64,000 nucleotides of DNA. Origin: a virus. The stretch is from positions 19,370 to 83,369 of IMG/VR virus record IMGVR_UViG_3300034374_005671; one strand, 5' to 3'. The translations under genes and the position numbers were made by a program. How positions within the stretch are numbered: the first letter of the stretch is position 1; every line of letters starts with the position of its first letter. The notes below the pieces were generated by a model, which was not told where the DNA came from, searched no databases, and saw only the letters and a program-made list of their open reading frames with translations. Below are positions 3 to 26,000 of the stretch, in pieces.

Positions 3-3000
3 GGAGGATATACAGGTAACGACCCATTCATAGACCAAAATTCTTTTTTGTATAGAATGGGCTCAAGAAGGGCTTCTGGTGGAAGAATACCTGATGGAGA
101 TATAAATAAAATAGTTATCCACTTAGCTGATAACCCTACTATGTTTGATGGTGTAGACGAAATAATAGTCGCAGTGGACACACCTCTTGTTTCAGTCACT
201 CATATGGGACGGAACAATAGGTCAGACTATGGTGGCGCAGGGTTAGGCTCTGCTGGTCTACAGGCTAATCATACAAAACAGTATTTTTATGCTTCAGGTA
301 CTTGGGGTACGTTAAATATAAAAGCTGATTATCCTCCAATAGACAAGATAGAATTGATAAATGGGGGAGAACTTGCAATAAACCTAGAGAAAACTTGTGT
401 ATTTGAGACTAGATGCCCTTTTAAAGTGTATGAAGACTTAGTTTGCAATCCTGTACCATTTGAATATGGTAACTTCTCATATTGGGAGTCTACCCTTAAC
501 TATCCAAACAATAATTTCTTGTATGATAGTCAAAGCGTGGTGATTACCGAGGCAGACATCCCACCTGATATCAGGACTGAGTTCCAAAACGTATTTACAA
601 ATGGTGCCCCTGCTGCAGGACAGCCTTACGTATTATCAGATGCTGCTGACTTTAGTTGTAAGCCAATTAGGCACTTCAAGTTCCCTGACTTCAACACAGC
701 ACCTGCATTTGACCAAGATGCTATACCATTCAGAAAAAACAATATATTCCCTATTGGATTACACTTGGATAATGAAGTAATTGAGGCTTTCCTTGATATT
801 GCTGTAAATAATAATTACATAAATCAAGAGTTTAGGGATTCTATAACTCACTACGAAATATTTAGAGGGGATACTAAATTTGATAGGTCTGTTATAGCCA
901 AAGGGTTATTGTATGATATGTATCAGTATCCTGAGTATGAGTTTTCTACAGAAGACTCTAACACAGACAATAATGCTTGGTTTAGTAATTTCCCTTACAA
1001 TGACCTTTCTAACAACAAGTTATTGTATCAAGACGAAGACAGAACTGAATACATCCCCCACCCTTTTAGGAATTCAAGAGCTGGGGCAGCTCGTAAATCT
1101 AACTACAAATATACTTTCCACTCTCCTGAGACTAGCTTTGATAAGCCTATACTACCTTTTGAAATGTATGTGGAGTCTCACTTTACGGGGCAGAGTAGAG
1201 GGTCGTTTGTGGCTGTAAAGAATCACCCTGTCTTCACAGTACTATCACCAAGAGCACATAGGTTGGCCAAGATACTAGCGGCTACAGAAACGTCTTTTGA
1301 AGTTCTTGCATTGAGTACAGAACTTTTTATACAGGTCCAACAAGCTTCAGGAGGTGTGATACCTATTGGTAAGGTAGCAGCTTGGATAGCTTGGGCCATA
1401 CTTGCTGGTTCTGCTGTGGCGAGTTCTATACCTGCAGGTAGACGAAGAAGAGTGGAGTGGGAAGAAATATTTTACAATAGAGGAGAGCGACATAACTTTG
1501 CTTACTATTATTCCTCAGTAGGATATTACAATCAATTCTCTAGAGCAAACAACGATGAGTTCAATACTTATGGACTGGTGGGAGATAAGCTTAGAGGACT
1601 AAAAGAAAGACTGTATATTAAAGATGGTAGATACAGAATAGACGAAGCATTTGACAGTCAACCTACTGTCATAAACAATACCTTTAGAGAGTCTTCTGTA
1701 TTCTTAAGTCTAGGTTCCGAAGTAGAATCTACTTTAGAACAAGATTCTAACTTTAACTACTCATTTAATTTAGAACCACCTGCCGCTATAAGAAATAGAG
1801 ACAATAGTAGATATGCAGCTAGTGACCACACTTGTGTAAATGTAGGGGATAGAACACCAGAAACTACTAGAAGTATTGCATCTCCTTATGTCTCATTAAA
1901 GCAGTTTATCCCAAATCAGCATGGAAACATAAATGATTTGAGATACATATACACTTCATACTGTGGCAAGTTGGGAACAGACAACTCTTGTGATATAGTT
2001 TATGGAGGAGATACATTCATCAATAGATTCTACATAAAAAGAAAGTTCCCATTCTTCTTAGCACCTATGATAGATGGTAACAATTCTTTACCTGACCTCA
2101 TACCTTTTAACTATCAAGACGTTAGAAATATTGGGTATCCTAAGTATTACTTAAACTACCGAATGAGTGAGAGGGATGAAAGCACAAGTCTAGGTAGTAT
2201 ACCTAATATGGTGTCTGACTATGAGTTAGATTGTTTCTCGAAAGGTAACAAATATATTGTTCCTCCGTCCAAGTTTTACTTGTACTATTACGGTATACCA
2301 GGATTTATGGTAGAGTCAGCCATGAACCTAGATTTCCGATACGGAGAGAACGAAACAGACAAAGGATATTATCCTGCTCAGTCTGACTTCTATAACTGGA
2401 CTCAAGAAAGTGTAGTACCTATTAGAGAAGACAATCAATATTTCTACTGGAATGTATACTCTACTGAGAATGATAGAGTTGGATACAGGTACTTACCTGA
2501 TAATTATGACCCAGCAGAGTTTAATTGTAGATTTGACCATTATGATAGAACTATCTACTCATTGCCTGATACAAACGAGCAAGACCTCTTAGATAATTAC
2601 AGAGTCTTTTTGGCTAATAACTTCTACGATTTCGGTAGCAAGTACGGACCTTTGAAAGCCCTGCATAGTATAGAGTCTGCTAAGGTTCTAGGTTTATTTG
2701 AGAATGGTGTGGTAGTATTTAATGCATACAGCACTATCCAAGCTACAACCGATGACTATTTGGTTGGTAATGCAGGTATATTTGCAAATAGACCCCAAGA
2801 GTACTTTAAATCAGACCTAGGGTACGGAGGAACTCAACACACAGCGTTTGCCACTTGCCAGTACGGACATTTTTGGGTTGATGCCAAGAGAGGCAGAGTA
2901 TACTCTGTTCAACCAGGAGGTGCAGGTATGCAAGAGATTTCTCAGAATGGCTTAGGTAATTGGTTTAGAGAAAATCTTCCATTTAGAATAAAGAAACAGT

Positions 3001-4004
3001 TCCCTAACATATCAGACAATATGATAGACAATCCATATGAAGGATTAGGCATATCAATGGTATGGGATGATAGATACTCAAGATTATTCGTCACCAAGCT
3101 AGATGCCAAAGTAAAATCAGGTATCACTATATACGATGGACCTAAAGAAACACTTCCATGTGTACCAGGAGGGTCTATCACAATTGACGTTAGATACGAA
3201 GATGATAAAGAAAAGTTAGATTTTTGGTATCTTTCTCCATCTCCGTTCTGCGAAGGACCGACTTTAGTACACCCACAAACTCATCCAAACATATTTGACT
3301 CTGCTTCTTGGACTGTATCGTATAGTCCTATTACAAAGTCATGGGTGTCTTTCCACTCGTTCTTACCTAACTATTATGTAGCTCACAATAACTACTTCTC
3401 TTCAGGACTTAATTTCGGTTCTAATTCAGGTATTTGGAATCACTTACTTGGTAGTAATCAAACGTTCCAAGTATACTACGGAACACTGTACCCTTGGATT
3501 ATTGAGGTACCTGTGAAGCAGAACTACAACACAAGAATGTACGAAGACTTCTCGTATCGACTTGATGTTAGGAGATACAGCAATGAGTATGATTATCACT
3601 ATTTCCCTGAAAACTTTGATACAGCTGTATTCTACAATGACAGAGAATCTACAGGTTTGCTAAACCTTATAACTCAACAACAGAACAATCAACAACAATT
3701 GATTGAATTACCTAGATTTACTGGTAGTGGAGTTGATATATTAGCTACTAAATCAGACTATACTTGGTCAGTAAACTTCTTCCTAGATAACCTTAGAGAG
3801 AATCATACCTTACCAATATGGAATCATGCAGTAAACAATGTAGGTAAGAGCCTAAATGCAACAGCATTTAACTATCAACCTACATTCAAAAACCATATTA
3901 GAGGACAGTATCTCATTGCTAGGCTATCTCAGAATAATGAGTCCCGACTCAAGTATATCTTTGAACACTTCATTTCCGATTCACTACTTTACGATGCTTA
4001 TTAA
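3..4004 (+). CDS. Tail stabilisation/nozzle-like virion protein (crAss-like, P22 gp10-like), 5'-truncated by the window edge
   Basis: The frame is open from position 3, so TTG at 48 is probably not the start. The protein is Y/F/N-rich and beta-propeller-like, with motifs GGDTFI, DLGYGGTQH, FWVDAKRG and SWTVSYSP..KSWVSFHSFLPNYY that I recognise from crAss-like stabilisation proteins. It precedes the giant cargo genes. Confidence 0.7.
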   Translation, partial: GGYTGNDPFIDQNSFLYRMGSRRASGGRIPDGDINKIVIHLADNPTMFDGVDEIIVAVDTPLVSVTHMGRNNRSDYGGAGLGSAGLQANHTKQYFYASGTWGTLNIKADYPPIDKIELINGGELAINLEKTCVFETRCPFKVYEDLVCNPVPFEYGNFSYWESTLNYPNNNFLYDSQSVVITEADIPPDIRTEFQNVFTNGAPAAGQPYVLSDAADFSCKPIRHFKFPDFNTAPAFDQDAIPFRKNNIFPIGLHLDNEVIEAFLDIAVNNNYINQEFRDSITHYEIFRGDTKFDRSVIAKGLLYDMYQYPEYEFSTEDSNTDNNAWFSNFPYNDLSNNKLLYQDEDRTEYIPHPFRNSRAGAARKSNYKYTFHSPETSFDKPILPFEMYVESHFTGQSRGSFVAVKNHPVFTVLSPRAHRLAKILAATETSFEVLALSTELFIQVQQASGGVIPIGKVAAWIAWAILAGSAVASSIPAGRRRRVEWEEIFYNRGERHNFAYYYSSVGYYNQFSRANNDEFNTYGLVGDKLRGLKERLYIKDGRYRIDEAFDSQPTVINNTFRESSVFLSLGSEVESTLEQDSNFNYSFNLEPPAAIRNRDNSRYAASDHTCVNVGDRTPETTRSIASPYVSLKQFIPNQHGNINDLRYIYTSYCGKLGTDNSCDIVYGGDTFINRFYIKRKFPFFLAPMIDGNNSLPDLIPFNYQDVRNIGYPKYYLNYRMSERDESTSLGSIPNMVSDYELDCFSKGNKYIVPPSKFYLYYYGIPGFMVESAMNLDFRYGENETDKGYYPAQSDFYNWTQESVVPIREDNQYFYWNVYSTENDRVGYRYLPDNYDPAEFNCRFDHYDRTIYSLPDTNEQDLLDNYRVFLANNFYDFGSKYGPLKALHSIESAKVLGLFENGVVVFNAYSTIQATTDDYLVGNAGIFANRPQEYFKSDLGYGGTQHTAFATCQYGHFWVDAKRGRVYSVQPGGAGMQEISQNGLGNWFRENLPFRIKKQFPNISDNMIDNPYEGLGISMVWDDRYSRLFVTKLDAKVKSGITIYDGPKETLPCVPGGSITIDVRYEDDKEKLDFWYLSPSPFCEGPTLVHPQTHPNIFDSASWTVSYSPITKSWVSFHSFLPNYYVAHNNYFSSGLNFGSNSGIWNHLLGSNQTFQVYYGTLYPWIIEVPVKQNYNTRMYEDFSYRLDVRRYSNEYDYHYFPENFDTAVFYNDRESTGLLNLITQQQNNQQQLIELPRFTGSGVDILATKSDYTWSVNFFLDNLRENHTLPIWNHAVNNVGKSLNATAFNYQPTFKNHIRGQYLIARLSQNNESRLKYIFEHFISDSLLYDAY

Positions 4005-4006
4005 TT

Positions 4007-7000
4007 ATGATTAGACTAGATTTAAATAAAAAGTTAACTAAGGCTGAAAACGGTACAGTTATACCTGTAGCTAGACATCAAAATTATTTTACAGTTGACC
4101 CATTTGGGGAAGGTCTAGATAGACCAAATAATAATTTGTATGATGAGAGAAATAGGGGAGGAAGTAATGCATATTCTGCACCAACTTCAGGAGGGCAAGG
4201 GTTCTATGGAGAAGCTACTAGAAATAGAACAAATGCAGATGCAATAGTACAAAGCCAAATAGCACAAGAAACTCAAGCAAGAATTGACGAGGAAAAAGAA
4301 AGACAACAAGAGATAGACCGAAACACCCTGGCTCCATATAGTTACTATAGGAAGTATGATTTAGATAAAAAGCCTATTGCTGGTTATTCTCCTGGAACCC
4401 CAGGACACACATTTGCATTGTATGGAGAGGATATAAAAAATTATCAGTACGGATTCGACAGTGCAGAAGATAACATTGCATTAGCGAATCAGTTAAGAGG
4501 CATATATACAGATTACACAGGCTCCGAAAGGCAAGAAAAATTAGATGCTCTTAGAGATGCACAGTATCAAAGATACCTTATGAATCCTGAACGTTTGGCG
4601 GCTATGGACCAAGATATAGCATATAATGAAGGTATACAGTCTAACGTAGATAGGGATTTTGGACCAGGTGTTGATAATGCTAGGGCTGATGTTAATAATT
4701 TTAGGTATCAAATGAGATGGGACCCTTTATTATGGCAAGATAAAAAATTACCTCCTAAAAACATAAACTACAATAGTTTAAATTCACAAATACACACTAC
4801 TCTTGGTACTTTGGGAATGGTTCCAGTATTTGGAGAACCTTTTAACTTGTTAGATGCAGGGTTATACCATCTTGAAGGAGATAATTTCAACAGAAATCTA
4901 TCACTAGGCTCTATGATACCCTTTTTAGGAAATGCTACAGGAGGTGCTCAATTGGCTAGAAAAGGATTTCAATATGGAAAAAATTTCTTTAGGAGGGGAG
5001 CATCTGCAGCTCCTACGATAGCGAGAGGAGCTACCAATATTCCTTCTCCTCAATTTAGAGGAGTAAATAGACAATTATTTCAATCGGATATAGATTATGG
5101 AAAATCATTAGGGCTAGACATTAATAATGTAGATGACTTAATGAAGAATTATAATTTAAGAAACAGAACATACAGAGCGATTGATGTAAATCCTAATACA
5201 TTTAATGACCCAGGATTCAGACAAGCCGCAACAAATGTAGGGGTTGATGTAGAGGACGTTGATGCACTTACAACATATATGGGCTCATCAGTTCCTTACA
5301 AAAGGATAGGCAATGTATACACAGAGGGTTTATTGAAAAACACGGGAGATAGCAAATCATTTATGTTCACATCTCCAAACAAAGACTTTACTACAAATTA
5401 CATTAGAAATGCAGATAATCCCTATGTTTTTAGGTACCCCATATTTAATGATGATGTTACTAACCTAACTAATACTGATATACTAAACAGAATACGTTAT
5501 GGTACGAGAGATAATTTCAGTAATGTTGGACAATTTGGACAAGAATTACCATATGAGTTTTTATTACGTAATCCAGATGCAGCAAAAAGTCTAGGTAAAG
5601 GACAAATAGTATCAATGCCACCTAGTGGTAATAAACCTTTTGTACAGACAAACACCATACAGTTTGTAGGTAATAGAGGAGATGCAATAATAGACCCTAG
5701 TAAAGTTGAATTTATGTCACCTTCTAACCCTGCTTTTGTTGACTTCCAACAGGGAGGTACGGCAAGAAGACATCAAGATGCAGAACCTCTAACATTAGAG
5801 CAAAGGGCAGAAGCTATGGGCGAGAACCCAGAGTACGCTAGAAACGTACAAAAAATGCTTGATGAGGGGGCAACTATACAAGAGTTAGCCGCCAGAAGAG
5901 TAGGTACTGTAAGTGGTTTATCTAAGTTATTCCCTGATGCTGAAATGGGGACTGCGCCTGAACGAAGTTCAAGCAGAAGCACTAGTAGTTCTAGTAGTCG
6001 GGGAGGCGGGTCTGATGTAGAGTCCAGAGCAGCTGAATTTAATATGTCCCCCGAAAAGTTTGTTGGGTACTACAACAGGGGGGCAAGAATGATTAACGAA
6101 GGTAAGAGTATAGATGATTTAGTTAAAATGGGATATGGCACAAGAGGAGCCTTATCAAGAATGTTCCCAACTGCCCCTACTGAAACAGTTAAGGTGGAGG
6201 AAACACCAGAAAAATCTTCAAATCTTGATAATTTATCTCAAGAAGAGATTAATGCTCTTTGGGTGCAAATGGGGAATGATATTAAAGATGCTCCAAAGGC
6301 AAAGAACCCTGAAGGTACCCGTATAATGAAAGATTTTCAACCAATAGGATTTCTTGATTACACTCCCCCTCCTCCAACAGTAAATGAAGATTTAGATATA
6401 CTTAATTCTGCTGCTTCTTTTTCTTCGCAATCATTAGACGAAATAAGTACTCCCGACATTTTTAAAGAGAAAAAAGAAGTACAACCGCCTGGTAGCGGGA
6501 CAGTTCTGCCTGGAAGAAGAAATATCTTTACAGGGGAGTATGTAAGACCCGCAGAAGGTAAAGATATTTTTGAAGCTACAGGAGAATTTTTTAATAGAAA
6601 TATTGTAGAACCTATTGAGGGTTTTGTAGATAAAAACATCATACAACCTTTCGAAGAAAAGTTTATTGAACCTATACAAGAGGAAATTGAATTTGCACAA
6701 GGAACTTTTAGCCCAGAAGTACAAAAAGATTTAGCGGCTCTTGAGTCTAGTGAAAATCAACAAAAAATAGCAATGGAGATTCTTCTGAATCCCGACCTCA
6801 CTATACAAGATGCGTTGAGGGATAGTGGTTTTACTCATGCAGCTCAGGCTATGGATGATGTAGAATACCTAGAAGAAAATTATGGAGATTGGTATGATTG
6901 GTATTTAGACCAAGGTACTACGGCTAAAGCACTTAAGAATATAGGAGAATTTGTATCAGGACAGGACCTTGACGTTCCTCAAGAAGCCCAGGAAGGCATT

Positions 7001-7399
7001 TCTGCAGGCAGAGAATTTTCTAGAATGAAGGACTTTACTGGTATAGAGTTCTTGTCTGACCCTTGGGTTGCAGACAATTACGGTGACCAAATATTTGAAT
7101 CAGTTATGGGTTACAAACCAGAAGAGGGAGAATATGAAGAAGCCCTTCCAATGATACAGGATTTAATAGAAATCCAACAGTTGATGGCTGAACAGGGTTT
7201 TGATATTAGTGAAATATTCCAACAAGGAGGTAAAATAAAACTAGACCTTGAAAAAAAATTAGGAGTAGATATAGACAAGCTAGACCCTTTACCAATAGGT
7301 ACATCCTACAAATCCCGTAGGTTTTTCCAAGAAAATCCTCTTGCAGCCATAGCATATGGTAAAAATCCTTTTAGAAAAGCAGGCTCTCCACCAAGATAA
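4007..7399 (+). CDS. Putative internal virion (cargo) protein, 1130 aa, with pre-toxin (PT-TG-like) hairpin, ART-like domain and a ~50-aa tandem repeat
   Basis: Long ORF coupled to the upstream gene. Contains the HTTLGTLGMVPVFGEPFNLLDAGLYHLEGD..LSLGSMIPFLG segment, YRAI/FTS/YE motifs and FQQGG punctuation. Confidence 0.6.
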   Translation: MIRLDLNKKLTKAENGTVIPVARHQNYFTVDPFGEGLDRPNNNLYDERNRGGSNAYSAPTSGGQGFYGEATRNRTNADAIVQSQIAQETQARIDEEKERQQEIDRNTLAPYSYYRKYDLDKKPIAGYSPGTPGHTFALYGEDIKNYQYGFDSAEDNIALANQLRGIYTDYTGSERQEKLDALRDAQYQRYLMNPERLAAMDQDIAYNEGIQSNVDRDFGPGVDNARADVNNFRYQMRWDPLLWQDKKLPPKNINYNSLNSQIHTTLGTLGMVPVFGEPFNLLDAGLYHLEGDNFNRNLSLGSMIPFLGNATGGAQLARKGFQYGKNFFRRGASAAPTIARGATNIPSPQFRGVNRQLFQSDIDYGKSLGLDINNVDDLMKNYNLRNRTYRAIDVNPNTFNDPGFRQAATNVGVDVEDVDALTTYMGSSVPYKRIGNVYTEGLLKNTGDSKSFMFTSPNKDFTTNYIRNADNPYVFRYPIFNDDVTNLTNTDILNRIRYGTRDNFSNVGQFGQELPYEFLLRNPDAAKSLGKGQIVSMPPSGNKPFVQTNTIQFVGNRGDAIIDPSKVEFMSPSNPAFVDFQQGGTARRHQDAEPLTLEQRAEAMGENPEYARNVQKMLDEGATIQELAARRVGTVSGLSKLFPDAEMGTAPERSSSRSTSSSSSRGGGSDVESRAAEFNMSPEKFVGYYNRGARMINEGKSIDDLVKMGYGTRGALSRMFPTAPTETVKVEETPEKSSNLDNLSQEEINALWVQMGNDIKDAPKAKNPEGTRIMKDFQPIGFLDYTPPPPTVNEDLDILNSAASFSSQSLDEISTPDIFKEKKEVQPPGSGTVLPGRRNIFTGEYVRPAEGKDIFEATGEFFNRNIVEPIEGFVDKNIIQPFEEKFIEPIQEEIEFAQGTFSPEVQKDLAALESSENQQKIAMEILLNPDLTIQDALRDSGFTHAAQAMDDVEYLEENYGDWYDWYLDQGTTAKALKNIGEFVSGQDLDVPQEAQEGISAGREFSRMKDFTGIEFLSDPWVADNYGDQIFESVMGYKPEEGEYEEALPMIQDLIEIQQLMAEQGFDISEIFQQGGKIKLDLEKKLGVDIDKLDPLPIGTSYKSRRFFQENPLAAIAYGKNPFRKAGSPPR

Positions 7400-16200: not shown

Positions 16201-16449
16201 GCAGAAAGAAGACAGCTACAAATTCTTGATGCAATATACCCTCAATATACATTTGATATGTTTGGAAATGTACTTTACGACCCTTCAAGAGCAGGAGATT
16301 TCTACGTACCAGAAACTGCTTTAGCTCAACAAATATATAACCAAGGAACAGGGACAAGCGGAAGCACTGAGGCAGTAGATGAGAATTTTGATACTAGAAC
16401 TATTGACGGTATCACATATCTAAGAGCACCTGATTCGTATCAGAGTTAA
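13228..16449 (+). CDS. Putative internal virion protein, 1073 aa (NAEVE..SHAQGG domain, coiled coil, basic cassette, Q/A-rich C-terminus)
   Basis: The NAEVEKNE...GKSHAQGG..LP...ILSD domain is typical of crAss-like/Bacteroidetes phage structural proteins. The C-terminal Q/A coiled coil resembles ejection (pilot) proteins. Confidence 0.6.
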   Translation: MNFYNLDLLSNYQDGGNTKIEEQVSGRYVKGVAKPEQHDVNAEVEKNEFIQYPDREISQVDPKGKSHAQGGEFMNLPPETKILSDNIKIGKELRDRLEDMFGVTLKTSDTIAKAMEKVRKSIGMESILVRMEQYLKKIKENNKVKDKDTKRVNEEYLANKIYELEQERNQKKELENQVFEMLFNVQETRKQAEQMGDPNHQNIRKRPPIDQPTEQEMSDYEQMKEAKQPKNLARPGQQGPETMQVMAENGGRLIEVFFDGGSPYVGNMNDMQALEVQAMQDGYDNLDEFIFGVYSDGGGIPQRYRSKGFTKVGVKKRAPSGAKHKWEVLARKKVGGKTRYKIVKGGFRGMKDFKSHKDPKRKKRFWDRMGGKNSPKAKDPFSPLYWHKRFGTWEEGGVLGYQNAGETASAFAARMGQAWPKGVKDPVYNADTKMWEFADGTPAISRGDAMNLARDINRTGEVPDAYKVAENIRNQGGVASTPITPSEEQTAANQNGPVTQYNPEPVDIGGVPHYEVIVDGKPYLLEAGKVSTIQTDDGSIFRVDMGDVESQDFSVDTRQEAGYRTGYSSRGDVKGYRGADKAAIDAQIAELESDLAPFLQAIEDGTVQADPETGKFNLPLTIRGGSSSRPMALGQTKSQLQSSFENLIQYNPELEGQVGFIQPDGSIDPNKQTGQVALPAGFHNVFGDEFDPGTIETFDLDELSRGGKEGEEALSNIGNDALAYNRNRTEYEEVLLPFLEQKGYDIDQFNVSNEMLPYRTAEETAADLGIDYEKVQAGDFSELSERLGREITSVEQAKEFLLDAAQFSGIGGASEGELTSLVSEVTPDDGGIPPPIIQDDPVMGGPMLLSTPRRLGPDPMMVGPFIMPEYDRVSAMKVSPQAGYQANTKQVKAGMDLLTQSVGSQAGANVANLLGQSAEGINQLTANTNQQNAQLKQQADQMNAQIQQAEAAARAQALATFGTESMTAYANTLADRRAYLNILEEDRLARDAERRQLQILDAIYPQYTFDMFGNVLYDPSRAGDFYVPETALAQQIYNQGTGTSGSTEAVDENFDTRTIDGITYLRAPDSYQS

Positions 16450-16460
16450 ACAAGTATAAA

Positions 16461-19400
16461 ATGGCTACAGCTTATTCACAACCTTTACAGTATACACCTT
16501 ACCAGGAGCAATGGAATAAAGAGCTTCTGGCTAAGGCTTTGCAGTATAAGCAAGATAAATATGATACAAACAGGCAAGTCATAAAAGAGACTATTGCTCA
16601 AGTGTCTAACATCGACTTGATAAAAGACCAAGATGCTGAATATCTATACGACAGACTGCAAACAGTAGTTAACAACTTAAATACTCAAGGTACAGGTGAC
16701 CTCTCTCTAGATTCTAGAGCTGATTACCTAACAGGGTATGTTGCTGATGTGGCAGACCAAAAAGTAATGAATGGTTACATTGGTACTAGGGCATACAGAA
16801 ACGTAGTTGCAGAGCACGAGAAGTATAAAGAAACAGGAGAAGCTTCTGATTTAAATTTATCTTATTCTTTGCAAGATATTAGTGCTTGGGCCAATGATGG
16901 CCAAATCGGAAGCGCATTACCTGCAGGAGCAAATACATCCTATGTAAAGTTTACTGATTTATATGAAAAATACCAAGAGGTAGCAAAAGCTTTACAACCT
17001 GATTCATATGTGGTGTTTGAACAATTTGGTGGAAGCGGATTCACATGGTACAGTCAGGAAGGTCTAAGACTCGATAAAAATAAATTAGTTTCTGCTTTTA
17101 ATTTAGCTACAGAATCAGACCCTGCCATCCAAGACCAGTTAAGAGTAAATGCTTGGGGAGCAAATTTAAATGTTAGTGATGCAGATTTCATAGCAACTTT
17201 TAAAGAAGATGGAGCAAGAGAAAAAGAAGCTATTGGTAGGTACATCAATAGACTAAAAGATGCTAAAGCTAAGAGTGTCAGTTCGTCTGAAATGGCCGAG
17301 TTGGATGCTAACATAGCAATATATGAAGAGCAAGTTAAGCAATATGATGAAGCTCTTATGATGACTGACGAACAGATACTAGCAAATAAAGAATCATACC
17401 AGTATCTTTCATACAGAAGTTCTTATTTTACTGACTTGGCAGGAGTATTTTCATATGAACAAATGGAAGCACCTAAATTAGTAACAGACCAAGGTGCACT
17501 AGAAATGTACAAACAGCAGCAAGCAAACGCTAGAAACAGAGCTAGAATACAATCAAAAGAAGATATAGCTAGGGCAAAAGCAATTGTCGAAGAGGATAAA
17601 ATGAGAATTGAAGATGAAAAAGCACTTAAAGCCTTAGCTATAGAGATACTTAAGGAAGAGGATACGGATATACAAGAGGGAATGTTACGATTCAATCAAG
17701 ATTTAATTGCTCGTAATCCTGAATACGCTGCTAAACTAAATTTAGTTACAAACTTTGAAAAGAAAGAACCTAGATTAACCCTTGAAGAAGCTGCAAGTGA
17801 ATACAATGTAGATTTAGTGGCTGTCAGTGAGGGAGATTACTCGACTATAGCAAGTGCTATGGGGGAAGGTGCAGTCCTTCCCGAGTTTGAAAGCCCCCAA
17901 GAGGCAGCTGCTTTTTTAGTAAGTCAGGCTAACATAGCGAAAGGGTTTGACAACACTAACAGTTACGACCCAATGCTTGATGCTTATCTTGCAAACGGAA
18001 TGATATCTCAAAAACAATATAATGAGATGACAGCTGGAGGTTATTCAAATTTAACTCCAGATGAATTCCAACAACTATTCAACCCTATAGAAACAACGGC
18101 TGGCGTTCAAAACTTACAATTTGACGACATGACTGTCACAACTGATGATGGTGGGCAGGAAGAACTCAATACCCTAAATATTCAGACTAAAATAAATGAG
18201 TTCTATGGTAAAAACGATGTGATAGAAGAGCAAGCCAGAAAAGAACTTGTAACAATATATGGGGAAGAAAAAGGGAATAGACTCTATAGAGAATTGGCAG
18301 GACTGGATAATATGTATTACCTTCGAATTATTGGAAAAGATACAGACGGTAGCAATATTATTCAAAAAGAGTATGCGACCTACGACAAAGACGGCAAAAT
18401 AGATATAAAATCCACGGAAGCTGATTGGGATAGAAATAATTATCTTTGGAATGAAAATGCTAATGAACCAATGTATTATAAGGACCTAGGTACTAATGAT
18501 ATTCGTGCTATGGTTAATCCAGCCGCATTAACTGGTTATAGGCAGGACATACCCGAGGAACAAGTATTTGCAGCTGCTGACAGGTTATCAACTTTAATGA
18601 CTCAGTATTCCGTAAACGAGCAAACTATAAATCACTTAGTAAATGCAAGGGATGGAGTGAGAACAGACTTTCGTTCCATCGCTGACGAGGCAGCAGACAA
18701 TATCATAGATAATAAATTGAGTTTTTTAATTCATAACGATAAAGGAGGGTCTTGGAATGCAATGTACAATGAGGATGAAGACTTATGGTTTATTGAGGGT
18801 ACATGGGATGCGAAGAATATGAGACCACTATCCATAGGCGAGGAGGGTGTAAGAAGAAATCTTAGGAATAAACTAGGTCCAGGTAAAATGCCAGGTAAAG
18901 AGTATTCTTGGTGGAACTTTACAAAATGGGGCACATCAGAGGCAGGTACAGCTGACTATATAGAAACATATGATATAGGCACATGGGGGGCCACAAACAA
19001 AAACAGAATCAGTTTGGAAGCTAATAATGACCAAGCAGAGAGAATCGTATTAGATAACGCCCTACTTCTAACAGCACCTAAAGAGAGTTTTTCTCTTGCA
19101 AGGAACAATGAACAGCAGTATCTTAGCTCAATTATAGCAGCCAACCAATCTAATTTTGAACCTATAACTGCATCTGATATCGCTATGCTTGGTGAAGGCC
19201 AAAATTTACAACTTAAAACAGGAGTTAAGGACGAAGGCGACAAAACAGTAGTACCTGCTGCTTTAGGACGTTTCACGGCCCTTACTGATGGTGCAGTGAT
19301 AGACCAAACAATAAAAAATAATGTAGGAGCTACAGAGGACAATGCAGCTACTACAACAGCTATGGATGGTAACGCAAGTATAATTACTACTGGCGGTTAC

Positions 19401-20012
19401 CACTATATTATAGCGGGATATGATACTCGAAATAAGGATGAAGTTAGCGTGATAGGGGGTAAAATACCTGTAGGGGCAATAGATTACTCGCAACCTAACC
19501 CTTTTCATGGTACATTACAAAATCAAATTACTGCTGCAAAGACTGCAGAAAACAACTACTATATGGAAAGGGTAGTGGCTAATAGACTGGAGTGGGATGC
19601 GGAGACTCAGACAGGAGAAAGATATATTGAACCTTTGGACAGAGCCCAACAATATTTTTCTCCTAACTTTTCAGTCGATGGTGTTAGTTACACTGCAGAG
19701 CTTAACCAATCAATTGAAAGGGTAGGACCCAATGATGTAGATTACGGATTGGTTGTAAAAGTTAACAAATTCACTACTGATGAGAATGGTAATAAGGAGC
19801 CCCATATATTCCAAGGAGGGGAAGGTAATGAAAATAATATTGACTTTATATGGACACCTCTTGATGCGAATGGAAATCCTTTAACATTTGATACACCAAG
19901 TGATTTTCAATTGTATATTCAAGAAAATTATAACGATGAAACAGCTCCTCTTGCTTTTGCATCAGCTATAAATGCATCAAACGAAGTACCAACAACAATA
20001 AACAAACCTTAA
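16461..20012 (+). CDS. Putative internal virion/ejection protein, 1183 aa
   Basis: The N-terminus MATAYSQP.QY.PY....ELL.KALQYKQDKYD resembles crAss-like cargo proteins. Lies in the cargo cluster. Confidence 0.55.
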   Translation: MATAYSQPLQYTPYQEQWNKELLAKALQYKQDKYDTNRQVIKETIAQVSNIDLIKDQDAEYLYDRLQTVVNNLNTQGTGDLSLDSRADYLTGYVADVADQKVMNGYIGTRAYRNVVAEHEKYKETGEASDLNLSYSLQDISAWANDGQIGSALPAGANTSYVKFTDLYEKYQEVAKALQPDSYVVFEQFGGSGFTWYSQEGLRLDKNKLVSAFNLATESDPAIQDQLRVNAWGANLNVSDADFIATFKEDGAREKEAIGRYINRLKDAKAKSVSSSEMAELDANIAIYEEQVKQYDEALMMTDEQILANKESYQYLSYRSSYFTDLAGVFSYEQMEAPKLVTDQGALEMYKQQQANARNRARIQSKEDIARAKAIVEEDKMRIEDEKALKALAIEILKEEDTDIQEGMLRFNQDLIARNPEYAAKLNLVTNFEKKEPRLTLEEAASEYNVDLVAVSEGDYSTIASAMGEGAVLPEFESPQEAAAFLVSQANIAKGFDNTNSYDPMLDAYLANGMISQKQYNEMTAGGYSNLTPDEFQQLFNPIETTAGVQNLQFDDMTVTTDDGGQEELNTLNIQTKINEFYGKNDVIEEQARKELVTIYGEEKGNRLYRELAGLDNMYYLRIIGKDTDGSNIIQKEYATYDKDGKIDIKSTEADWDRNNYLWNENANEPMYYKDLGTNDIRAMVNPAALTGYRQDIPEEQVFAAADRLSTLMTQYSVNEQTINHLVNARDGVRTDFRSIADEAADNIIDNKLSFLIHNDKGGSWNAMYNEDEDLWFIEGTWDAKNMRPLSIGEEGVRRNLRNKLGPGKMPGKEYSWWNFTKWGTSEAGTADYIETYDIGTWGATNKNRISLEANNDQAERIVLDNALLLTAPKESFSLARNNEQQYLSSIIAANQSNFEPITASDIAMLGEGQNLQLKTGVKDEGDKTVVPAALGRFTALTDGAVIDQTIKNNVGATEDNAATTTAMDGNASIITTGGYHYIIAGYDTRNKDEVSVIGGKIPVGAIDYSQPNPFHGTLQNQITAAKTAENNYYMERVVANRLEWDAETQTGERYIEPLDRAQQYFSPNFSVDGVSYTAELNQSIERVGPNDVDYGLVVKVNKFTTDENGNKEPHIFQGGEGNENNIDFIWTPLDANGNPLTFDTPSDFQLYIQENYNDETAPLAFASAINASNEVPTTINKP

Positions 20013-20017
20013 TTAAT

Positions 20018-23000
20018 ATGGCTGCTGATTCTTCACCAAAATTTAAATTAGGTCAAAGAACTGCTAACATTACTCCACAAGAGGTAAAACAGCAATCAAG
20101 GCCTTCTTCTGCCGCTTATAACACTGGTATAACTAAAGTAGATAAGTCTACTTATAATGCTGACCTTATAAGGAATACGCACTTTATAGACCCTTTTGAA
20201 CATTATAAGCCAGTAGGTGAAAATATGTGGGCATCTCGATACCCAAATTATAGACCTTATTGGAGTGAGGACCAATGGGCTGAAATTCAAACTTCCGAGG
20301 AAGTCAGAAGAAATATGCGTAAAAGAGCTTGGGATGGATTCTGGGGGTCCTTTGCAGGTGGTTTTAAAAATACAAGTGAAAATATAGGAAACGTCCTTGG
20401 CCGTGATTTAGGAGGTCTTATAGTTAGCGATGCAGGTAAGAAGGCAGGGGAGCGTATGGCAGCTGAAGAAGTTTTATATCCTATTTATACATCTAGAGAA
20501 ATGAGGCTTGAAGATGCTAAGGCTGACCCAAGTATAGCAAGCTCATTTATGAAGTATATGCCAGGGGGAGCTGACCCAGGAAGAAGATGGGCACAATTAG
20601 GTGCATCATCAGGTTTTACTCTTGGTACACTAGCCACTGTGGCGGCTGAAGAACTTGCATTAGGGGCTTTAACTTCATTCACAGGTGGGGCAGCAGCTCC
20701 TGCTGCGGCTGTAAGAACAGGTAAAAATCTCAATAGATTAAGGAAGGCTTTTAAGACAATGTTCTCTAGTGGAGGTGATTTTCTTAAAACAACAAAAGCC
20801 TTAGCCGCAACAAAAAATGTAGCAAGAGGTGCAAAAGCTTTAGGCAAGGGAGCACTTTACACAGCTAGAATGGCGAATCTAGCATCTTATGAAGCTTCAA
20901 TGGAGGCGGGTATGTGGATGGCTGAGTCTAAAGAAAATTATATTAGAGACTACATGGCTGAAAACGGAGGTGAATTACCTTCTAACGAAGAATTAGCAGA
21001 AGCATACGAGAAAATAGAAGAGGGAGGTGATTTTTTGTTTACATACAATATGCCTTTACTCACAATGTCTAATCTCATAGTTCTACCTAATATTATTAGG
21101 CCAGCAATCCCTTTTAAATTTGGAACAGGATTTATACCAAAAACACTCTTTAGAGGAGGTAAGTATAAAGCTTTGGGAGATGTGGTTAAAGAAGGGATGC
21201 AAAAAACGATGGGAAAAAGGCTCGGAGGGTTCGCATTCGGAACGGCAAGACTCACTGGTAAAGTAGCTAAACTAGCAGGCTCAGAAGGTTTTGAGGAAAT
21301 GGCTCAGGGTATTGGGGGAGAAGCAGCTTCTAGTATGTATGACCCTGTTAACGGTGAGTATGCAGACACCCTTATGGAACAAATATCAGTTATTGGTAAC
21401 GCTGCGAAAGAGTCAATGGGCTCTGGTAAAGGTTGGGATGAATTTGTAGCAGGGGGTCTTATGGGTCTTGGTTTTGGTGGATTTGGAGCAGTTAAGACTA
21501 TGGTCACTGGGGGGAAAAGCCAACTTCAACAAAATAGAGAGACAGCTGCTGCAATGAATGCAGCTATGGATGATTTCATACAAGCCACAATGTTTAGTGC
21601 TGATAATATCAATGGTGCGACACAAACACAAATACAAGCAGAGATATTAAAGGCAGAACAAGAAGGAGACACTAAAAGAGTAAAAGATTTAAAAAATCAA
21701 GCAAGAGCTTCTCTTTTCATGACTATGCATAGGTCAGGTAAAGGTAAAGACTTCGTTAATGATTTAATGGAGCAAGTAGAGATAATGCAAGAAGAAAACC
21801 CCGAAGGTGTGGAACTTCTTCTTAATGGTAAAACTATAGAGGAGACCAAGTTAGAACTCCAACAACAGTATGAGCAGTACTCCAAGGACATGGATATGTA
21901 CACGAGTGCCTTTGGGATAAACGAAATGACTGACCCAAATGAGTACAGTGCTACATATAACGCAGCACATTTTCTCGCAGCTTCAGGAACTAAACTTAGA
22001 GATGGGCAGGCAAGGGTAGAAAACCTAAGAAATGACTTAGCTAAGGAACTTGCTGAGAGCGAAGACGGTAAAGATGCAGATAAAACATTTAAGATAAATG
22101 AGATGTTTGAGGTCCTCATGGACCCAACAAAGCTTCCAGCCGCTATAAGCAGTGTGTATAATTCTTTAGAGACAAACAAAGAGATTCTTAAGAATTCTAC
22201 AAATGAAGCTGAAAAGAAAGCTTTACAGGAAACAATTGATAAACAAGAACAATACTTGTTTGCTCTCAATGCAATAAACAAGCAGGTATTTGATAAGAAT
22301 GGTAATATATCAGATAACTATGATTCTGCGGAGGCTATAACGACCATCTTAAATCAGATGCAAAAGGTAGCTCCTTCTGCTGTTAATGAATCTTTCAGGC
22401 AAAAGGCTAAAGACCTTTTAAAAATTAACGCAGAAAACCAAAACATCACCTTCTTCCAAAACGTATTGACAGACCCTAAAGCTCGTGAAGCATACGCATC
22501 GAAATTTGTTGAGGCTCGTGAGATTGCCCAAGCAAAAAACGCTCTTAAAAAAGCTAAGGCTGGTAACAGAATGGTTAGGGGTGTAGACACTGACTTGGCA
22601 AATGCTGATAGCATGACAGAGCAAGAGTTTGACGAAGCTACAGGTGATGCACAGTTTTCTCCTCAAGACATAGATTTAGTTCTATCTAAACTAGCTTCCA
22701 TAAAGCAAAATCGTTTTACAGGTAAATACGTAGTAAATAAAAAGAAGTACGATACTTTAGAAGAAGCACAAGATGCAGCCTTAGATTCTTTACCAATACA
22801 AGTCAAAGAAAAAGCTGCCCCTTACAAAGAAGCATTTAAGAAAAGAGCTAACGCTATTGCTCAGTCTAAGCAAGACCCTAAAGCAGTAGAGGCTGCACAG
22901 AAAAGAGAAAAGCCTTTAAGAGATAGAATTAAAAGAGCAGAGAAGAAGCAACAAGCCGCTGACGTTGTCCGTAGAGGAGGTGGTAAAACTGTCGCACAGA

Positions 23001-26000
23001 CAGAGTCTGCTTTAAAAAAGAACCAAGAGGCTCTTGCAAAAACAAAGAAGGACATTAAGGAAGCTCAGACTGAACTAAACCAAGCTACAAAAGCAGTAGA
23101 GGCTGAGAATAAAAAGAAAAAGAAAGATGCCGCTAAATTAAAAGAGGCTAAAGAAAAGCAGGCTAAAGCTAAAGAGAAGGTTGCTGAGTTAAAGCAAAAA
23201 CAGTCTGATTTAAATAAAGCAATAAAGGCTGATACGCAGTATTTACCTGAAATTAAAAAAGTTGAAGAAAAGCAAAATGCTATTGCTGAAGCTAACAAAA
23301 AAGGTGACTTAGTAACAGAGTTATCAGCTATACAAGATTTAATTAAAGCAGCATCCACAGGTGAAGTTATATTAAGCAAAGAACAATTAGCCAATTTAGT
23401 TGCTAGACGATTGGAAATAGAAAATCAAGGTTATTCAGTTGAAGCTCCTACTGTAGGACAGGTTATGACGGAGGAGATGGACAACAGTTATGATGTAGAA
23501 GAGGTTGTAACTGAAGACTTACCAGAGGGAATGTCTGTAGTTAAAGAGGTTAAGCAACCCAAAGTATCCTATCAAACCGAAGAAAACGCAGACCCCGAGG
23601 TAAAACAAAAGGGTAAAGTAGTTGTAGCTAAAGGTATAGGTAATAAAGAGAACTTCAAAGAGCTTGAAACTCAAGAAAAAATAGAAAAAAACGCAGCGGA
23701 AAATAACAATCCTGAAGGACAAAAAGCAGCACAAGAAAAAATACAAGACGAAAAAGAAACCATTGCTGCTAATTATATGTCCAAAGAGGAAGAAAAAGCT
23801 GAAGGAGCAGAAGAAAAATCTATTAAAGAAAAGATAGACACCGAGACTCCTCTTACTGAGCAGGAGAGAGTAGAACGGGATGATAAGTTAGCAGCTAGAT
23901 TTAAAAATGCAGAAAATTCAGGCCCAAAAACTCAAAATGAGGTAGACAATGATGCTACTCGTTTATCAAGACCACAAACCGAATCTTCTAGAGGAGTCCT
24001 TGGTTTGGTATTTGATTATGCCATCATGTCTCTTTACTACGGTCAAAATCTAACAGGATTTTTATCAAACTCAGCCAGCAGCAACCTCCAAAAACTATTT
24101 GGAGGATTGAGAGAAAAAGGCAAAACTCAAGGTAATGTAAGTATTGCTGTTATAAAACTAAACGATTCACTTATCCCTGAGTCTGAGATTTTAATAGACT
24201 TGTCAGAGAATGGTAAAGACAAATTACCTAAAAACGCTACAGATAGAGACATCACAAGACTGTCAAATAGAATAAATAAAAAACTAGAAGCAGGTGAAAC
24301 TGTAGTAATAAGAGACAGCAAGAATAGACTTATCATTATTAATAGAGGTCTAAACACAAGGCCGTTTCTACAAGCAATTGAGCAAAAGTATAGCTTATAT
24401 AGAGATGCTTATACTGGTTTAATCAGGGAGGGAAGTGCTAATGGTAAGATATTTGGTTCTAATTTTAACGAAGGGCAATTCACAGAACAGTCTAAACAAA
24501 GACTCGGGCAACTTAGAATAGGTGATGAAGTACAATTACGTATCCCTAATAACGAATACAATCAAAACCTCATTGAGCAATATCAAAGAGGCGAAATAAC
24601 CCAGAGAGATGTATTTGCCAATATGGCTATAGAGATAGTAAGCGATGGGCATGTAGTAGGTCTTATACCAGGTTCTGAGAAAAATAGTACGTATGAAGTA
24701 GAAAGATTCCAAAGAGCTGAACAGCTAAGAGCTAAAGTGTTTGGGGGTAAAAGCAAAAAAGCTATCGACTCCGTAGTTTCCAAAGTAGGCAAAAGAACAA
24801 CAGGCTACTTGGCAGGTAAAGTTGAAGTGAGCCAAAATTTTGTTAAAAGAGCTGGTAAACGTAACCCAGCACAAGACCAAACAGGACAAACAAACACCGT
24901 TTTTGTAGGTCTTGAACAGTTTGAACAAGACCTAGCTGACAGCGGTGCTAATGTTACTGTAGAATACTTTGTAGGTGAGGACCCTTACACAGCCGTTGAT
25001 GCTAATGGCAAAAAGATAGGAAATAAGGAGGCCAACAGAGAAAATTCACCTTTTAGAAAAGGTGCAGTATATATAAAAGTAACAGACAACGCTACACAAC
25101 AGACACTCACTGTACAAGCAGTCACTCCTATGTTTGATAGTGCAGGTAATCCTGTTGTGTCGCCTATGACCTATAATCAAAATGATTTAAAGTCTGAGGC
25201 GTTTAAACAAGAACTTTCTACAAATTTAGACGGCTCTACAGGACAGCCTATCATATCAACTCAGATATTTGTAGATGGTAAATCATTCTCTTCTAATACC
25301 AATGAGACTAACAAATCAGAGACTGTATCCGATAAATTTGGAGAAACTCAACAGAAAGGTAACGTAACTGTGGTGCCTGTAGGTGGTAAGCCTGTTCCTG
25401 TTACAGGTGCATCTATAGATAATGAAACAGATACTTTCAAAGGAGAAGGCCCTGATGGACCGATAGAATTCCCATTAGCTAAGATAGAGGACTTCGCTCC
25501 TTACAAAGAAACTAATTCAGCTGCAAGACCTAAAAATGCTCCTCAAACTTCAGCAAGAAAGCAAGCTGATGAGGCGTTAGCCAGACTACGAAGAATAACT
25601 AAGCCAGCAGAAGTTATAGATAGAAGTGCAGTGCAAGCGGCAGCAGAGATAGTTAAAATAGAAAGACTAGTAGAAGGAGGTCTTCAGTTAAATGAAGATG
25701 AGCAAAAAATACTAGATAATGCCAAAGCAGGACTTAAAAACGGGGGCTATAGTATAGAGACTAAAATCGAAGGAGAGGTATTAGATAAAGTGCCTACCAA
25801 AACAGAAGCAGTTACAAAGTTAGAAGAGGATGATACTCTTCCTGAAGGTGTTGTTGTAGTTAAGAAAGTCAACAGACCTGCTGTAACTAAGGGTGGTAAC
25901 CTAGTAAGTGGTACAGGTAGCAATACAGGTAAACCTAATTATACTCTTAGAGTAGGTACAAAGAAAAATACTGAACACGCTGAAAAGAAAGCAGAATTAA

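Follow-up and report, generated by a model that had tools for sequence, protein, structure and literature searches.

A 64,000-nucleotide stretch of viral DNA, referred to here as the window, constitutes the right-hand 64 kb of the 83,369-bp IMG/VR virus record IMGVR_UViG_3300034374_005671 and includes an open reading frame (ORF; coordinates 4007-7399, + strand) located directly 3' of a gene for a muzzle-protein homologue. Its product, a 1130-amino-acid protein named P0001, can be considered a mosaic polyvalent or cargo protein in which a pre-toxin junction, of the kind known from bacterial polymorphic toxins, precedes a candidate nicotinamide adenine dinucleotide (NAD)-binding cassette with the predicted fold of the ADP-ribosyltransferase (ART) superfamily, and which would be packaged in the particle and injected. 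We regard this as the best explanation of the data, with a probability of about 0.6.

According to this interpretation P0001 is probably packaged in the phage particle and extruded into the host ahead of the DNA or along with it. The N-terminal domain (aa ~21-255) would serve as the constant carrier part. The 65-residue hairpin that comes next would be the same junction module found between the carrier and the exchangeable toxin of bacterial polymorphic toxins; it would mark the point beyond which recombination exchanges cassettes, and might act as a flexible, cleavable or membrane-active linker. The cassette (aa ~338-590) would be the founding member of an unnamed family with the ART-superfamily fold. 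Because the family keeps the NAD-site Arg and a Ser/Thr motif, the likeliest job of the cassette would be to bind NAD+ and to modify or disturb a host target early in infection, in takeover or counter-defence. The modules, in window coordinates, are the following.

4067-4771 (+), aa ~21-255: N-terminal domain, candidate carrier or delivery part, kept in P0003, P0004, P0010 and P0079
4781-4981 (+), aa 259-325: pre-toxin-type hairpin, putative junction module, with 346 phmmer matches
4991-5020 (+), aa 329-338: exchange breakpoint, where similarity to homologues ends or starts
5069-5743 (+), aa ~355-579: domain with predicted ART-superfamily fold, exchangeable cassette
5174-5176 (+): R390, invariant Arg in predicted strand beta-1 in all aligned members
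5369-5377 (+): T455-S456-P457, strand and then helix, candidate counterpart of the ART S-T-S motif, near-invariant as [ST]-[ST]-P
5654-5656 (+): T550, Thr that opens the predicted fifth strand, invariant in all 9 of the members having the domain
5744-5776 (+), aa 580-590: FQQGG...RRHQ punctuation, right edge of the cassette, where similarity ends
5792-6187 (+), aa 596-649 and 670-727: two copies of a ~55-aa internal repeat, found by local alignment
7214-7396 (+), aa 1070-1130: conserved C-terminal tail, 53-56% identical to the P0003 and P0004 C-termini

The pre-toxin-type hairpin

A phmmer search with aa 255-590 of P0001 against 1.84 billion cluster representatives (cut-off E ≤ 1e-3) returned 346 matches, most of them covering aa ~257-325 only, with 40-50% identity. 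The consensus of this segment is H..LD..GMVPV.GE.ADL.NAG.Y..EGD..NA.LS.A..IP..G..ATG.K. Sixty of the hairpin matches were scanned against Pfam for toxin-domain content. The domains found include AHH and GH-E nucleases, RHS repeats, PT-HINT, Ntox21, Ntox47, Tox-REase-2 and Tox-REase-7, as well as Tox-MPTase4, Tox-ART-HYD1, Scabin-like, DddA-like deaminase, bacterial RNase A, Hcp, eCIS_core and SpvB. Many of these sixty proteins are bona fide polymorphic toxins with several delivery systems, and the pre-toxin pattern that a preliminary description of this DNA had noticed from the letters was recognised correctly. Since the distance from the end of the hairpin to the C-terminus has a median of 132 aa in the 148 non-phage matches (interquartile range 99-170), the hairpin is placed where the toxin tip begins. 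A degenerate DNA pattern for the hairpin core was found in at least 120 bacterial genome stretches, with about 0.06 chance matches expected by our own estimate; among the matches listed are genomes of Actinomycetota, Bacillota, Bacteroidota, Proteobacteria and Cyanobacteria. At the level of sequence, homology between the hairpin and the pre-toxin junction of bacterial polymorphic toxins is supported.

Within P0001 the hairpin is the most hydrophobic stretch, yet it lies below transmembrane level. Both the hairpin and the ART-like domain occur once in the 83-kb record. The hairpin is rare in IMG/VR, where the pattern identified 5 contigs. Two IMG/VR contigs encode small proteins of 228 and 214 aa (L122:1321-2007, + strand, and L123:2287-2931, − strand) in which a strong hairpin (aa ~50-115) is followed by a tail of ~140 aa to which no family was assigned, a classical small polymorphic-toxin layout on viral contigs.

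Exchange of modules beyond the junction

P0003 and P0004 have aa 1-329 in common with P0001 (57%) as well as the last ~57 aa (53-56%), and their middle regions, which carry an HExxH module, LysM and other modules, are unrelated to that of P0001. P0003, P0004 and P0010 have the N-terminal domain with 57-60% identity; in P0079 it occupies aa 791-1030 and the identity is 39%. The ends of similarity define the breakpoint: that to P0003 and P0004 stops at aa 329 and that to P0010 at aa 327, and similarity to P0005 and P0006 begins at aa 338. On the other side of the cassette, similarity to P0005, P0007 and P0008 stops at aa 583-593 of P0001, on the FQQGG...RHQ motif, and a related 'F..G[GK]' end is present in P0007, P0005, P0006 and P0008.

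Exchange was also seen in other phages. The viral contigs L125 and L126 have a P0079-type protein of 2154-2266 aa directly after a 55-61% identical muzzle homologue; in these proteins the N-terminal domain and hairpin span aa ~790-1100, and what comes after is unrelated. A more distantly related phage (L128, 116 kb) has P0007 in this slot, with the hairpin and the ART-like cassette at aa 118-413, and in the 57% identical orthologue of P0007 on L131 both flanks are kept, ~670 other residues replace the cassette and there is no hairpin. P0011 and P0166 share 99% identity from aa 1 to aa 127, where a hairpin-like segment ends, and are unrelated from there on. In P0008 hairpins flank the ART-like domain on both sides.

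These alignments show exchange of the domain at this position among the homologues, and P0001 and its relatives combine an N-terminal part that stays constant with one that varies beyond the conserved junction, as in polymorphic toxin systems. The position had been described beforehand as swappable, and homologues do carry other modules after the hairpin; the domain found there is not invariant. The toxin-tip layout proposed at the same time does not hold, as the cassette is internal, followed by 540 residues that comprise the ~55-aa repeat, a long acidic region and the conserved tail.

Relatives of P0001 carry HExxH, LysM and peptidoglycan (PG)-binding modules. HExxH motifs (e.g. INHELxHMGTY) are located at aa ~471-485 of P0003, P0004 and P0010, aa 923 of P0005, aa 909 of P0006, aa 660 of P0008 and aa 164 of P0079; they suggest Zn-peptidase-like modules, for which there was no Pfam match. 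In P0003, P0004 and P0010 the motif is found ~160 aa after the hairpin, where P0001 has the ART-like cassette. P0010 was considered as a fourth architecture and rejected: over their first 520 aa, P0003 and P0004 match it at 75-79% identity, and it is probably a truncated gene call. A search for longer proteins with aa 1-330 returned none, but it also missed the known P0079, and single-sequence searches for related loci with the domain, the N-terminal domain, P0011 and P0158 returned none. The L131 protein (L131:9980-15133, + strand) includes within aa ~125-275 the string 'IFYRNTS' and, ~45 aa later, 'SFFTPSNSAFRDYG', an R / S-x-S-like pattern that may mark a different, more compact ART-type module.

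Predicted fold of the cassette

The cassette is a discrete unit of aa ~338-590 that is 42% identical to aa 531-771 of P0005, with nothing else common to both proteins. The domain recurs in P0006, P0007, P0008 and P0116 (1261-1444 aa) and in the small proteins P0009, P0011, P0164 and P0165 (327-364 aa); where the source contig could be recovered it was viral in every case. No Pfam, PHROG or NCBIfam model matches the domain, and a sequence profile search of PDB with the domain alignment was empty. A language-model search (Atlas) provided a weak lead (0.85) to a cluster in which 32% of the members are ART-PolyVal proteins.

An AlphaFold2 model of the domain, built from an 8-sequence alignment, had a predicted local distance difference test score (pLDDT) of 71.8 and a predicted template modelling score (pTM) of 0.71. 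Together with the conserved unit seen in the alignments, the model agrees with the globular domain of ~250 aa proposed in the preliminary description. Foldseek comparison of the model with PDB gave no match at E ≤ 1e-3; the weak rows were mostly RES toxins, diphtheria, cholera and pertussis toxins, RhsP2, NatT and MbcT, and when the list was re-aligned all 50 of its 50 rows were ART-fold proteins. The best 50 of 48,161 representative chains compared by VIA-align belong almost exclusively to the ART superfamily. These neighbours include TreX, KptA, RES, diphtheria-type toxins, RhsP2, MbcT, pertussis toxin, Scabin and PARPs, and one of the 50 rows is a domain of the cyanophage A4 pre-ejectosome. 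All these structural neighbours are at low Z (≤ 5.0). Foldseek against BFVD also returned nothing at E ≤ 1e-3, and its weak rows include ART-PolyVal proteins and a phage KptA.

The comparisons support a predicted fold of the ART-superfamily type for the cassette, and the model is counted as having the split beta-sheet core of that fold. The ART-like fold anticipated beforehand is borne out in this sense, with neighbours that are nearly all of one superfamily and at low Z. We also considered the cassette as a captured bacterial toxin tip and discarded the idea: the family hidden Markov model (HMM) matches 0 of 120 hairpin-bearing bacterial loci.

The candidate NAD site

All the strings quoted in the preliminary description are in frame and start at aa 263 (HTTLGT), 387 (RTYRAI, nt 5165), 452 (FMFTSP, nt 5360), 473 (YVFRY), 512 (QELPYEFLL, nt 5540) and 580 (FQQGG). 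The domain had been read as having ART motifs in the order R-S-E. The conservation of R390 and T455-S456 is what this reading would predict for the first two elements; it fails for the third, as E513 and E517 are variable. R390, in 'TYRAI', is invariant in all aligned members and is located in the first predicted strand. We infer from the aligned ranges, not from a residue-level superposition, that it is equivalent to pertussis R9, cholera R7 and diphtheria H21. The 'FTSP' segment (aa 454-457) forms a strand and then a helix in the model, like the S-T-S motif; T455-S456-P457 is kept in 6 of 9 members, the exceptions being P0116, P0008 and P0165. Further invariant residues are G435, N436, Y465 and Y473. 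When positions were counted back from the aligned pertussis, cholera and diphtheria chain ends, the catalytic Glu would be expected at about aa 546-556, near T550.

As far as the model and the alignment indicate, the family keeps features of an NAD site and is devoid of the canonical catalytic Glu. Since this Glu is not conserved, any catalysis must be non-canonical, and the domain is no more than a candidate enzyme.

Position of the gene in the phage genome

The two genes at the beginning of the window are as follows.

3-4004 (+): C-terminal part of the muzzle homologue; the window cuts the gene, which is complete in the record (G000, 16285-23373, 2362 aa)
4007-7399 (+): P0001, mosaic protein of 1130 aa in the first slot after the muzzle gene, from the ORF list and its translation

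The muzzle homologue matches PHROG 37948, 'virion structural protein' (E 5e-222). By tblastn it is 32% identical over 91% to a csAssE-Sib gene annotated 'Muzzle protein' (E 6e-172) and 38% identical to structural proteins of the Cellulophaga phages phi4:1 and phi17:2, and by BLASTP it has a weak match to crAss001 gp44 (E 5e-5). The complete homologue, at 2362 aa, is much longer than gp44 (1371 aa). Genes located farther upstream have matches to virion-structural and tail-fibre PHROGs. The phage is a marine, crAss-like phage of Flavobacteriia, and the P0001 gene sits in its virion or cargo block, as had been proposed for it. From this gene position alone we infer that P0001 is located in the virion and would be injected.

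The + strand of the window carries a long run of large ORFs and the − strand the replication genes. The ORF after P0001 encodes 829 aa and starts 75 nt downstream; no same-strand ORF of at least 60 aa lies between the two and there is no immunity gene directly downstream, as the preliminary description had stated. No lysogeny genes were seen in the window, and no transmembrane segment was predicted in P0001. The CheckV completeness of the record is ~54%. P0001 has no match to Pfam, PHROG or NCBIfam families, and neither tblastn of P0001 and of the hairpin nor megablast of 20 kb matched any of 50,697 GenBank phage records.

Evidence against the interpretation and alternative explanations

Several results weigh against the interpretation of P0001 as an injected protein with a pre-toxin junction and an ART-fold cassette. 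The first group concerns the hairpin, which had initially been likened to the Pfam family PT-TG (PF14449; gathering score 23.5 bits), a likeness that the HMMER check did not confirm. The PF14449 model does not match P0001 or its segment aa 257-398 at E ≤ 1, nor anything in the whole record at E ≤ 0.01. It matches at most 1 of 60 bacterial hairpin homologues at E ≤ 5 and finds no match in 5 bacterial genomes carrying the hairpin. AlphaFold2 applied to aa 1-338, the N-terminal domain plus the hairpin, gave a pLDDT of 49 overall and below 50 for the hairpin. A second group concerns the slot and the cassette. BLASTP of crAss001 gp44-gp47 against all ORFs of the record matched only gp44 to the muzzle homologue, so that P0001 is unlike gp45 and gp46 in sequence. 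The domain model has an 8-sequence basis, and hmmscan at E ≤ 1 gave only a spurious BTG match and no Pfam ART family. E513 and E517 vary among members (E, N, D, K or a gap), and 'QELPYEFLL' lies in a variable, low-confidence region. There are 0 invariant acidic residues among the 9 family members, and aa 546-556 read VQTNTIQFVGN, with the invariant T550 in a strand pattern x-N-T-[IV]-Q and no conserved acid.

As regards PT-TG, the PF14449 model itself works, since a class-level search found PT-TG in 40 of 251 Bacilli genomes; it found none in 61 genomes of the order to which the genome G001 belongs (E ≤ 1e-5). The homologue P0158, from Gimesia, bears the UniRef name 'Pre-toxin TG domain-containing protein' and is not matched by PF14449 at E ≤ 0.1. 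Comparison by hhalign of a 155-sequence hairpin alignment with 23 true PT-TG segments gave a probability of 24% (P 8e-4, 61 columns), and the hairpin HMM matches 10 of 25 PT-TG loci with E between 7e-4 and 0.02. Like PT-TG (PF14449; Zhang et al., PMC13483458) the hairpin is positioned directly before a variable toxin, and the two resemble each other in the LD..(I/V)P..G start, the G.D...LS centre and the (I)P..G..K end; they differ in the spacing of the motifs, which is off by about one helical turn. A relation of the hairpin to true PT-TG is no more than suggested by these profiles. We conclude that the hairpin most probably represents a pre-toxin junction family that is at most distantly related to PF14449 and is missed by current models; a new or widened family model is warranted. 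We also tried the hairpin as a conserved module of crAss001 gp45 and abandoned it, as the hairpin HMM scores ~1 bit on gp45.

As regards the active site, the cassette could be a pseudo-enzyme that has lost the catalytic Glu and acts by binding NAD+, ADP-ribose or a host protein, or that serves as a capsid packing unit. The lack of any invariant Glu or Asp in the 9 members, the invariant Thr near the expected Glu position and the replacement of Q552 by Pro in part of the family are what such a protein would show, and inactive ART folds, ZC3HAV1/PARP13 and the TASOR pseudo-PARP, are found among the structural neighbours. The strong conservation of the NAD-site Arg and of the S/T motif speaks against it, as does the fact that cassettes behind pre-toxin junctions are mostly enzymes in the bacteria checked. 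Moreover, ARTs devoid of the Glu, such as the H-Y-I PARPs, can still act as mono-ARTs. Loss of activity would be a possible outcome, one to which we give a minor share of the probability.

The cassette could also use NAD+ without being a protein ART, as a RES/MbcT-type NAD+ degrader or a KptA/Tpt1-type phosphotransferase or ADP-ribosylase, in which case its injection would drain NAD+ from, or protect, an NAD+-dependent host defence, or would act on RNA. The KptA alignment extends over only ~85 residues, the RES R-E-S and Tpt1 R-H-R-R signatures cannot be recognised in the family alignment and there is no Pfam RES or PTS_2-RNA match, all of which make this function unlikely. The least probable of the alternatives, that the ART likeness is an artefact of a model from a shallow alignment and that the domain has another, possibly new, fold, with only the junction and the exchange left to stand, is hard to reconcile with neighbours drawn almost entirely from one superfamily in two differently built lists, when chance neighbours at low Z would mix folds, with conserved R and S/T motifs that fall on the matching strands, and with the weak ART-PolyVal lead from the independent language-model search.

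Comparison with known systems

Returning to P0001 as a mosaic cargo protein with an exchangeable ART-fold cassette, we compared it with systems described previously. ART domains are the commonest modifying enzymes of phage polyvalent or head-packaged effector proteins, with T4 Alt as the prototype (PMC5512222, PMC9503650). Like the polyvalent proteins (Iyer et al. 2017, PMC5512222; Iyer et al. 2022, PMC9503650), P0001 is large, consists of several modules, one of them ART-type, and is encoded among virion genes; its relatives have HExxH peptidase-like, LysM and PG-binding modules, and its injection together with the DNA is predicted. It has the many unrelated modules, the virion-gene context and the reshuffling among relatives that characterise that group. 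Unlike them, P0001 has no match to ART-PolyVal, Alt/VIP2 or any Pfam ART, and a toxin-type junction marks its exchange point; PMC5512222 includes 0 mentions of PT-TG or pre-toxin.

The muzzle gene of crAss001 is followed by two genes for cargo proteins; proteomics detected these in virions, and it has been proposed that they pass through the tail in a partly unfolded state (PMC10172136). The slot of P0001 corresponds to that of gp45 and gp46 (Bayfield et al. 2023, PMC10172136) in that the muzzle gene immediately precedes it and the genes for the giant RNA-polymerase-associated proteins follow. P0001 differs from them in that it has no predicted transmembrane helix and is known here from its gene. 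The overall design would fit both the theme of phage polyvalent or head-packaged effectors and the crassvirus cargo slot.

The MuF polymorphic toxins of temperate phages, as Jamet and colleagues reportedly described in 2017, have a constant head-associated carrier domain followed by variable toxin domains. P0001 resembles them in this succession of a constant phage carrier domain and variable domains. Unlike them, it has no MuF (Phage_Mu_F) domain by Pfam, belongs to a crAss-like phage, carries its cassette internally and has no immunity gene. The polymorphic toxin system (Zhang et al. 2012) differs likewise from P0001, in which 540 residues follow the cassette and no cognate immunity gene is located downstream. 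The Rhs ART toxins TreX/TreTu and RhsP2 (PDB 8s2m, 8s2n, 7rt7) are ~10-14% identical to the phage domain, at low Z; the latter is about twice as long, has helical insertions and has no conserved catalytic acid.

Neither a toxin-type pre-toxin junction that serves as exchange point in a protein of the cargo slot nor this ART-fold family is described in PMC5512222, PMC9503650 or PMC10172136. If the interpretation holds, phage-injected proteins and bacterial polymorphic toxins are linked by a common module. The junction motif could then be used to find exchangeable effector cassettes of such phages in metagenomes. The cassette would provide a compact family of 250 residues, ART-type in fold and unusual in its active-site pattern, that can be directly expressed and assayed. 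A bolder version, which we consider doubtful, is that the hairpin is an undescribed module, missing from domain databases and common to bacterial contact toxins and phage ejection or cargo proteins, that marks and perhaps translocates or releases exchangeable effectors, that crAss-like phages would diversify their injected arsenal by polymorphic-toxin cassette swapping, without immunity genes, and that the cassette founds a Thr-for-Glu ART clade, so far known from viral contigs only, with non-canonical NAD+ chemistry. If the hairpin does act in release or membrane passage, it would be relevant to toxin delivery in many bacterial phyla.

Other features of P0001

AlphaFold2 predicted a helical structure, with moderate confidence only, for aa 75-220 of the N-terminal domain. 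The two copies of the internal repeat align locally with a score of 75, as compared with 25 +/- 4.8 for shuffles, and P0079, the slot orthologue, matches the second copy at 49% identity in its aa 1388-1446.

An 'aromatic-Q-x-G-G ... [KR]-[HKA]-Q' punctuation is found at module borders, in the window at 5744-5776 and 7217-7231 and also in P0003-P0008, P0079 and P0116. In four proteins the right border of the ART-like cassette falls on the 'aromatic-Q-x-G-G' motif, and crAss001 gp45 likewise contains xGG strings. The same short motif, I[KR]LDL.KKL, is present at the N-terminus of P0001 (MIRLDLNKKL..., window 4007-4081) and at the start of the C-terminal tail (GGKIKLDLEKKL, 7220-7260). Such a pair, one copy towards each end, may be a signal for docking or processing, and P0003 and P0004 show an equal pairing of N- and C-terminal motifs.

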